DNA of 64,000 nt, from NCBI RefSeq assembly GCF_013315695.1, contig NZ_CP054353.1; one strand, 5' to 3'. Within the stretch, counting starts at the first letter, position 1. Every line of letters begins with the position of its first letter. The position numbers were made by a program, and so were the translations under genes. Below, piece by piece: positions 1,914 through 2,002 of this stretch. Source of the DNA: Escherichia coli (GTDB lineage: Bacteria > Pseudomonadota > Gammaproteobacteria > Enterobacterales > Enterobacteriaceae). The notes under the pieces were generated by a model, which searched no databases, was not told where the DNA came from, and saw nothing but the letters and a program-made list of their open reading frames with translations.

Positions 1914-1924
1914 CAAATTAAGCG

Positions 1925-1953
1925 AAAGGCCATCCTGACGGATGGCCTTTTTG
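1925..1953 (+). terminator. rrn operon rho-independent terminator
   Basis: GC hairpin GGCCATCC-tgac-GGATGGCC followed by TTTTT. Confidence 0.75.
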
Positions 1954-2002
1954 CGCTGGTGCAGAAAAAGGTCGGATGCGACGCTGGCGCGTCTTACCCG
2001 AC

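Follow-up and report, generated by a model that had tools for sequence, protein, structure and literature searches.

The "absence" of yjaA from the interval between the 5S rRNA gene and yjaB in the Escherichia coli DNA analysed here (a stretch of 64,000 nucleotides, hereafter the window) represents an allelic cassette and not the scar of a deletion. The gene is missing because the whole segment from behind the 5S rRNA gene to the last codon of yjaB (1921-2040) is present in an alternative form. We consider it highly probable that the spacer seen here is the complete distal spacer of an rrnE-type rRNA operon in a yjaA-less E. coli lineage, and that the whole segment is an alternative allele. 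Nothing suggests that yjaA was deleted recently in this strain.

An earlier note on this DNA had proposed that yjaA is lacking between the 5S rRNA gene and yjaB, and tblastn, blastn and a primer scan all failed to place the gene at the locus. The best tblastn match of K-12 YjaA against the whole 64-kb window had an E-value of 4.3, the K-12 rrfE-yjaB spacer had no blastn match at the locus, and none of the four Clermont yjaA primers, neither the pair of 2000 (yjaA.1/yjaA.2) nor that of 2013 (yjaA.1b/yjaA.2b), had a site in the window with three or fewer mismatches. All four primers, whose sequences were checked against the table in PMC7656184, match K-12 with no mismatches and at the expected spacing. 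K-12 YjaA scores 177 bits against NF041448 (YjaA family stress response protein; cut-off 125), and no open reading frame or fragment fitting this family of about 125 aa was found in the window. As for residual homology, MAFFT paired an 11-mer, TGCAGAAAAAG, with the interior of K-12 yjaA; blastn with a word size of 7 gave no significant match at the locus, and we took the pairing to be due to chance. The K-12 annotation, with the order rrfE (b4010), yjaA (b4011), yjaB (b4012) and metA (b4013), agrees with the note, which had placed yjaA between rrfE and yjaB, and K-12 does not share the short spacing of the window, having 520 bp, yjaA included, where the window has 89 bp.

Structure of the interval and of its alleles

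The first base of the window lies inside a 23S rRNA gene, and the operon to which that gene belongs can be recognized in the near-identical genome AF3 by the order purH-rrs-tRNA-Glu-rrl-rrf-yjaB-metA. Downstream of the 5S rRNA gene, yjaB is the only long open reading frame of this part of the window's list, and it is followed by metA, aceB, aceA and aceK; the synteny of metA with yjaA and yjaB is kept across the Enterobacterales. Coordinates are collected in Table 1.

Table 1. Features of the rrfE-yjaB locus and of the aceK-iclR junction, in window coordinates
Feature	Position	Strand	Basis
23S rRNA, 3' part, of the rrnE-equivalent operon	1..1699	+	Rfam LSU_rRNA_bacteria, 1685 bits, model positions 1248-2925
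5S rRNA (rrfE equivalent)	1794..1913	+	120-nt boundaries by alignment to K-12 rrfE; Rfam 5S_rRNA 1796-1911, 93.2 bits
Variable "type II" spacer cassette	1921..2040		Fills the slot of the K-12 terminator, yjaA and spacer; alignment breakpoints
Predicted intrinsic-terminator hairpin of the rRNA operon	1925..1952	+	AAAGGCCATCC-TGAC-GGATGGCCTTT, then TT; consensus scan and fold
REP (repetitive extragenic palindrome), one element	1969..2007		Imperfect hairpin 1969-2004
yjaB (GNAT acetyltransferase), 158 aa, C-terminally 11 residues longer	2003..2479	-	Open reading frame list; NF007807; Pfam GNAT
yjaB 3' end with a paralogous copy downstream of rrfG (K-12 yfiS)	2037..2100	-	rrnG-distal alignments of K-12, 042, N3 and MS 21-1
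metA, right-hand anchor of the locus	2636..3565	+	309-aa open reading frame; annotated as metA in AF3
aceK-iclR junction without arpA	8678..8693		aceK 6953-8677 and iclR 8694-9557 (-), 16 bp apart

The gap between the end of the 5S rRNA gene and the yjaB stop codon (2003-2005) is 89 bp long (1914-2002), exactly as had been noted before, a length that rests on a yjaB reading frame extended by a frameshift, so that the canonical stop at 2037-2039 would give about 123 bp instead. Within these 89 bp, a terminator hairpin and a single REP element are separated by a 16-nt A-rich linker. The segment 1905-2015 (111 nt) folds much better than shuffled controls (z = -4.8), and two hairpins are responsible for this, that at 1925-1952 being the dominant one. 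It begins 12 nt past the end of the 5S rRNA gene and has an 11-bp stem with six G-C pairs, a 4-nt loop and the T-run TTTTT; a G+C-rich hairpin with a T-run, placed immediately behind an operon's final gene, is what one expects of an intrinsic (rho-independent) terminator, and this predicted hairpin should terminate rrnE transcription. Terminators of this type also stand behind the 5S rRNA gene in Kosakonia, Superficieibacter, Salmonella and Citrobacter.

REP elements are imperfect palindromes of about 35 nt, repeated in intergenic regions, with the consensus GCC(G/T)GATGCG...CTTATC(C/A)GGCCTAC. The element at 1969-2007 conforms to this in that it forms a hairpin and has a core that is repeated in the window: further copies of the 23-nt core occur at 6844, 40176 and 44403, each with two mismatches (0.00 expected by chance), the first of them within an Rfam naRNA4 match. 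The element is also predicted to make up the 3' end of the yjaB transcript, which runs towards it from the other side.

When the window is aligned to K-12 MG1655, which has the same operon end and the same neighbours (rrfE-yjaA-yjaB-metA, b4010-b4013) and flanks that are 96-97% identical, identity is unbroken up to the end of CATCAAATTA (1920), the 5S rRNA gene included, and is regained from CCCCCACATA (2041) onwards. The latter point lies within the last four codons of yjaB, and the last residue of YjaB and its stop codon belong to the variable segment. Between the two breakpoints, 120 bp in the window replace about 520 bp of K-12. The K-12 interval contains the 384-bp yjaA gene (b4011; NC_000913.3:4213234-4213617, plus strand; PMC7656184) and has a terminator of its own, CCCCGGTCCATAAGGCCGGGG, which differs from that of the window, whereas the window carries an unrelated cassette. 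The simple deletion relative to K-12 that the note had implied is thus not what the alignment gives.

A second yjaA-less allele, which we call type I, is found in O157:H7, IAI39, SMS-3-5 and cryptic-clade Escherichia. Its layout is the same, consisting of the 5S rRNA gene, a GGCCATCC-type terminator, one REP and yjaB, yet the type I rrnE cassette of SMS-3-5, IAI39 and O157 is only 68% identical to the 86-bp core of the window's cassette, and the roughly 30 bp that follow the REP are unrelated between the two (GCAGGCACGATAG...GGGGCAGC in type I versus GAAGAGTTGCGGCGAGTGCAGATATCCGCA in the window). Two haplotype families can be told apart, type I (GCATTGGCGCAG...) and type II (GCGCTGGTGCAG...), the latter being that of the window, and at least three cassette types exist at rrfE-yjaB. 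EA7 and N3 have a modified type I, in which an additional, rrnB-T1-like terminator and part of a repeated 5S rRNA gene are present.

The right-hand edge of the cassette also affects the end of YjaB. Over residues 1-145 the protein matches the NCBIfam profile NF007807 (PRK10514 GNAT; 147 positions) with 276 bits, against a cut-off of 134, and Pfam GNAT domains are present. Canonical YjaB has 147 aa and ends in LAYVG, one further residue and the stop; the ends are YVGA in K-12 (147 aa), YVGE in the type I strains O157, IAI39 and SMS-3-5 (147 aa) and YVGG in E7-1N7. In the window, by contrast, residue 147 is followed by NADICTRRNSS, and the 158-aa protein ends in YVGDNADICTRRNSS before its stop. 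The C-run at 2041-2045 consists of five C in the window versus six in E7-1N7 and in the copies behind rrnG; since the run is one base shorter, the TAA (2037-2039) is lost and YjaB grows from 147 to 158 aa. The stop codon that is used instead (the complement of 2003-2005) falls in the base of the REP stem. The same 158-aa protein is annotated in AF3 and MS 21-1 (WP_000236989.1). A REP that abuts a stop codon is reported (Liang et al. 2015) to reduce translation through ribosome stalling, and one may speculate that the extended allele might lower the output of YjaB.

Frequency and age of the yjaA-less state

We counted the states of the junction in 5,426 complete E. coli genomes. The common type I junction, that of IAI39, SMS-3-5 and O157:H7, is present in 2,811 of them, yjaA is present at rrfE-yjaB in 2,594, and the type II junction of the window occurs at rrfE-yjaB in only nine. 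These counts sum to 5,414 of the 5,426 genomes, so that the three states are essentially mutually exclusive and, taken together, nearly exhaustive; the median number of places with yjaA is one per genome across the 5,426. About 2,820 genomes, or some 52% of the complete genomes, are without yjaA. To lack the gene is therefore the ordinary and indeed the commoner state of a well-known polymorphism, while the particular cassette that the window carries at rrnE is rare. Six of the nine type II genomes (AF3, MSB1_4I, MS 21-1, GF131 and two other UK blood isolates) share an identical 216-bp junction, and in the remaining three (E7-1N7, N3 and GF43) the junction is 95-96% identical.

To follow the history of the site beyond E. 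coli, one genome per species was scanned with YjaB, and proteins were searched with YjaA. The syntenic slot 5S-yjaA-(yjaB)-metA-aceB was found in seven genera. Identity to K-12 YjaA is 100% at the protein level in E. whittamii, 69% in Superficieibacter electus, 66% in Phytobacter diazotrophicus, 65% in Kosakonia sp. S29, 63% in S. enterica subsp. salamae and 47% in Citrobacter youngae, and it is 47-55% in Pectobacterium, where the order is 23S, 5S, yjaA, metA, aceB, with no yjaB; the outgroup orthologues as a whole are thus 47-69% identical. Because this synteny reaches Pectobacterium, the simplest explanation is that yjaA was ancestral at the site and has been lost independently many times. 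The gene would then probably be an old resident of the site, and its absence secondary and older than E. coli. That both states predate the species follows from the occurrence of the type I cassette in the cryptic-clade Escherichia E1V33 and MOD1-EC7003 and of yjaA in E. whittamii. Decay by deletion also happens, as can be seen from E. coli HH45, where a remnant that lacks its 5' part and carries a frameshift still shows 89.7% identity to K-12 yjaA.

The opposite reading is that yjaA never was in the lineage, the yjaA-less arrangement being the ancestral one in Escherichia and the gene having entered K-12- and B2-type lineages horizontally and integrated by recombination in its conserved 5S and yjaB flanks. 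Several observations point in that direction. In most of the sampled relatives yjaB adjoins the 5S terminator, without yjaA and with a REP-rich spacer only (Klebsiella spp., C. koseri and most other Citrobacter, S. enterica arizonae and diarizonae, Pseudocitrobacter, Phytobacter massiliensis); the cryptic-clade type I cassettes fit it as well, and a copy of the yjaB 3' end that lies behind another rRNA operon, rrnG, in 5,408 of the 5,426 E. coli genomes (see below) records a yjaA-less junction. Nevertheless, orthologues diverged to 47-69% identity that occupy the same slot in seven genera are most simply explained by vertical descent and repeated loss, and the HH45 remnant is an actual case of such decay, for which reasons we regard a horizontal entry of yjaA as rather unlikely and retain the ancestral presence of the gene as the preferred reading.

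Terminators were also considered as a source of information on origin. A GGCCATCC/GCCCATCC-type terminator is found at the yjaA-positive loci of Kosakonia, Superficieibacter, S. salamae, Phytobacter and C. youngae. The GGCCATCC-type terminator, common to all yjaA-less cassettes, was considered as a candidate proof that these originated from rrnG and was dropped, since yjaA-positive outgroups use the same type; from this it follows that the type is ancestral at rrnE and that the CCCCGG terminator of K-12 is derived.

Kinship with the distal end of rrnG

When 161 bp around the junction served as a database query, many genomes gave matches over the full length, with 92-95% identity, that were located not at yjaB but after the 5S rRNA gene of rrnG, upstream of kgtP. 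This is another chromosomal locus, and it differs from the one in the window in that, after about 60 bp, the homology to yjaB gives way to the upstream region of kgtP. Between rrfG and kgtP, strains 042 and N3 have the terminator of the window, its REP and its post-REP sequence (GAAGAGTTGCGGCGAGTG.AGATATCCGCATTAT), followed by about 60 bp that resemble the 3' end of yjaB, and this spacer is 93% identical to the 86-bp core of the window. Such a long form stands behind rrnG in 186 of the 5,426 genomes (042, N3 and 184 others); nearly all other genomes, including K-12 and MS 21-1, have a short form that is 42 bp shorter and whose left part is type I-like.

In K-12 the yjaB-like piece, which corresponds to the last 20 or so codons of yjaB, is annotated as a small-protein gene of 20 codons, yfiS (b4783). 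K-12 YfiS (MEVGKLGKPYPLLNLAYVGV) and the C-terminus of YjaB (SEVDDLGKPYPLLNLAYVGA) agree in 16 of 20 residues, and the DNA in 50 of 63 nt. How far the likeness to yjaB extends in the rrnG copy varies by strain: in N3 about 50 nt are near-identical, while the K-12 copy is more diverged throughout. In Salmonella enterica, Kosakonia and Yokenella the interval from the 5S rRNA gene to kgtP was found to contain no copy of the yjaB 3' end; the copy is therefore not universal in the family, and either it is confined to Escherichia and Citrobacter or it had several origins. In open-access papers and preprints we found no account of how the yjaA-less allele is built, of where yfiS came from or of its relationship to yjaB, and that yfiS is a copy of the yjaB 3' end has, as far as we could find, not been remarked on before. 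If the relationship holds, K-12 YfiS would be encoded by a gene that arose out of a piece of yjaB.

The two loci, moreover, do not appear to evolve separately. Both haplotype families, type I and type II, occur at both loci in E. coli, and N3 carries type II at rrnE as well as at rrnG. In Citrobacter sp. NCU1 the rrnE-yjaB and rrnG-kgtP sides are 96.7% identical over 305 bp, a stretch that includes the start of yjaB, although between genera the REP-rich spacers are not alignable; this pattern is the signature of concerted evolution. As judged from these alignments, the ends of rrnE and rrnG appear to exchange cassettes, using the rRNA operon as the homology arm on the left and, on the right, the 3' end of yjaB or its copy yfiS. 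More tentatively, one may picture the distal ends of rrnE and rrnG as a two-copy paralogous unit, made up of the 5S rRNA gene, the terminator, the REP spacer and the yjaB 3' end or yfiS, whose copies swap cassettes through gene conversion at ectopic sites; if the yjaA-less end of rrnG were copied into rrnE in this way, yjaA could be lost in one step and recurrently, a possibility that we think worth stating without holding it to be the probable one.

A rival reading is that the cassette in the window stems from a recent intragenomic gene conversion, in which the strain's own rrnG-distal region erased whatever rrnE had contained. The 93% identity of the cassette to the rrnG-distal long forms, the two homology arms (to the left the rRNA operon, to the right the copy of about 60 bp shared by yjaB and yfiS), the two type II cassettes of N3 and the almost identical loci of Citrobacter sp. 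NCU1 all speak in its favour, but MS 21-1, which has the window's identical 216-bp junction at rrnE, carries a short form of type I at its rrnG end, and we accordingly rejected a present-day donor within the same genome. Furthermore, the best rrnG match is 93% identical, not close to 100%, and therefore either the conversion was not recent or the donor was another genome. A recent conversion from within the genome is thus quite improbable. Type II at rrnE could also be an old, retained allele that itself seeded the long form behind rrnG.

We somewhat favour a history in which a type I cassette was inherited first and was overwritten later by type II, through recombination or conversion. Under this scheme the lineage would have inherited a type I yjaA-less rrnE end such as that of SMS-3-5 and IAI39, the common cassette that phylogroup F strains carry. 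The cassette of about 120 bp would then have been replaced by type II via homologous recombination or gene conversion, with the rRNA operon as the anchor on the left and the yjaB 3' end as that on the right, and the donor may have been an rrnG-distal long form or copy, or a foreign rrnE region. Finally, the loss of one C from the C-run would have added 11 residues to YjaB and moved its stop into the REP.

One might still suspect an assembly artefact, i.e. a collapse or mis-join at a repeated rRNA operon, given that rRNA operons are the commonest break points of assemblies and that most outgroup contigs in the YjaB scan end at that very 5S rRNA gene, but six independent complete assemblies, from different projects and hosts, carry the identical 216-bp junction, a junction without yjaA is present in another 2,811 complete genomes and the junction itself is coherent, with its terminator, REP and in-frame yjaB, so that the chance of an artefact is negligible.

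Phylogroup and significance for typing

The earlier note had also pointed out that yjaA is a target of Clermont phylotyping, which is so (PMC7656184), and had proposed its absence as an indicator of lineage. As an indicator it is valid; taken alone it is weak, since about half of the complete E. coli genomes lack the gene. A second Clermont marker, arpA, which the note had not mentioned, is absent from the window as well: the primer AceK.f has a match at 8279, but for ArpA1.r there is no site in the window with three or fewer mismatches. With both yjaA and arpA missing from one window, phylogroups A, B1, C, D and E are excluded for the strain.

The locus of chuA lies outside the window, and for this marker we relied on genomes that share its rrfE-yjaB junction. 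AF3 and MS 21-1 both have chuA annotated (WP_000089583.1), in a chu cluster that sits between dctR and yhiD. Over 64 kb, 13 SNPs and one extra IS1 (in dinF) set AF3 apart from the window; MSB1_4I scores slightly above AF3 as a match to the window, and no genome in the database is exactly identical. In the Clermont scheme of 2013 and 2019, the quadruplex profile arpA-, chuA+, yjaA-, TspE4.C2- denotes phylogroup F, or G as distinguished by ybgD; TspE4.C2 and ybgD, like chuA, are located outside the window. The partial profile obtained here from two markers in the window and from chuA in AF3 and MS 21-1 (arpA-, chuA+, yjaA-) fits phylogroup F or G, or an atypical B2 should TspE4.C2 be present. 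The body of yjaB is 99.4% identical to that of SMS-3-5, a strain typed as phylogroup F (PMC7656184). A similarity search with 24 kb was also tried as a guide to phylogroup and proved uninformative, as its ranking mostly reflected how IS elements and islands alter coverage.

The presence or absence of yjaA has been a routine marker in the typing of E. coli since 2000, and absence is the majority state among the complete genomes. What we add is small: a rare cassette at rrnE, its kinship with the end of rrnG and the origin of yfiS from yjaB, none of which amounts to a new kind of system. Should conversion between the two loci generate yjaA-negative alleles, there would be a mechanistic reason for the occasional mistyping of strains by yjaA. 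If the exchange of cassettes between the rrnE and rrnG ends is true, the yjaA state of the Clermont scheme would be partly homoplasic, driven by a concerted evolution of rRNA operons that spills over into their flanks, and the locus would provide a tidy example of rRNA-operon gene conversion reaching into unique flanking DNA.

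The reading frame of yjaB and the terminator loop

The yjaB gene encodes a product of 158 aa, as opposed to the usual 147 (window 2003-2045). Because the run of cytosines at 2041-2045 comprises five residues in the window and not the six of related alleles, the usual stop codon is lost and 33 nt more are translated, up to a new stop, a TAG within the REP stem. In the terminator hairpin of the same spacer the loop reads TGAC (window 1936-1939), while the otherwise identical cassettes (the variable spacer segment) of strains MS 21-1 and GF131 have GTCA. Each orientation is seen both at rrnE and at rrnG, depending on the strain, and judging from the sequences the difference looks like an inversion of the loop in a perfect-stem hairpin.

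yjaA in other lineages, and other features of the window

In E. coli HH45 (NZ_CP116411.1, locus L014:1129-1440) a GGCCATC-type terminator is followed by a yjaA remnant that is 5'-truncated, frameshifted and 89.7% identical to K-12, and this locus is an intermediate stage in the decay of yjaA in a divergent lineage. Escherichia whittamii Sa2BVA5 (locus L018:4011-4391) and K-12 have YjaA proteins of 100% identity, and E. whittamii shares the K-12-type terminator as well. Such closeness to K-12 is unexpected for another species and suggests that the yjaA locus was exchanged recently.

Of the other Clermont markers, the fourth, arpA, is absent from the aceK-iclR junction, a gap of 16 bp (window 8678-8693); a site for primer AceK.f was found at window 8279, and none for ArpA1.r in the window. 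The otherwise near-identical genome AF3 lacks the IS1 that interrupts dinF. According to the AF3 annotation, the yjbD-lysC island carries a nucleotidyltransferase-domain gene as well as a slipin-family gene that contains an internal stop. The interval from psiE to malG (window 37572-37666) has no annotated xylE; this and the PTS operon presumably both depart from the K-12 gene order.

Features located in the window and in the compared genomes
Feature	Location	Details
naRNA4 (REP325-type nucleoid-associated RNA)	window 6796-6873	Rfam match, 81.8 bits; between aceA and aceK
Sorbose-type PTS operon	window 16154-22672	between pepE and rluF
Small island	window 24694-28868	between yjbD and lysC; AF3 annotation
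IS4 interrupting island	window 25959-27305	AF3 annotation
IS1 interrupting island	window 28171-28868	AF3 annotation
IS1 within dinF	window 53696-54463	768 bp; 9-bp target duplication
yfiS (b4783), small-protein gene, K-12	L011:1926-1988 = NC_000913 2725925-2725987	between kgtP and rrfG
Citrobacter sp. NCU1 compared regions	L026 + L052	contigs 48 and 4

A copy of the yjaB 3' end behind rrnG

The K-12 gene yfiS, whose segment has its homologue at window 2037-2100, is a paralogue that duplicates the final ~20 codons of yjaB (identity: 16 of 20 aa, 50 of 63 nt). Among 5,426 E. coli genomes, 5,408 have a copy of the yjaB 3' end behind rrnG, and Citrobacter sp. NCU1 has one too; the search in Salmonella enterica, Kosakonia and Yokenella gave none. 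The rrnE-type and rrnG-type distal regions of Citrobacter sp. NCU1 are 96.7% identical over 305 bp, the yjaB 3' end included, a signature of concerted evolution reaching past the rRNA operon into the flanking DNA.
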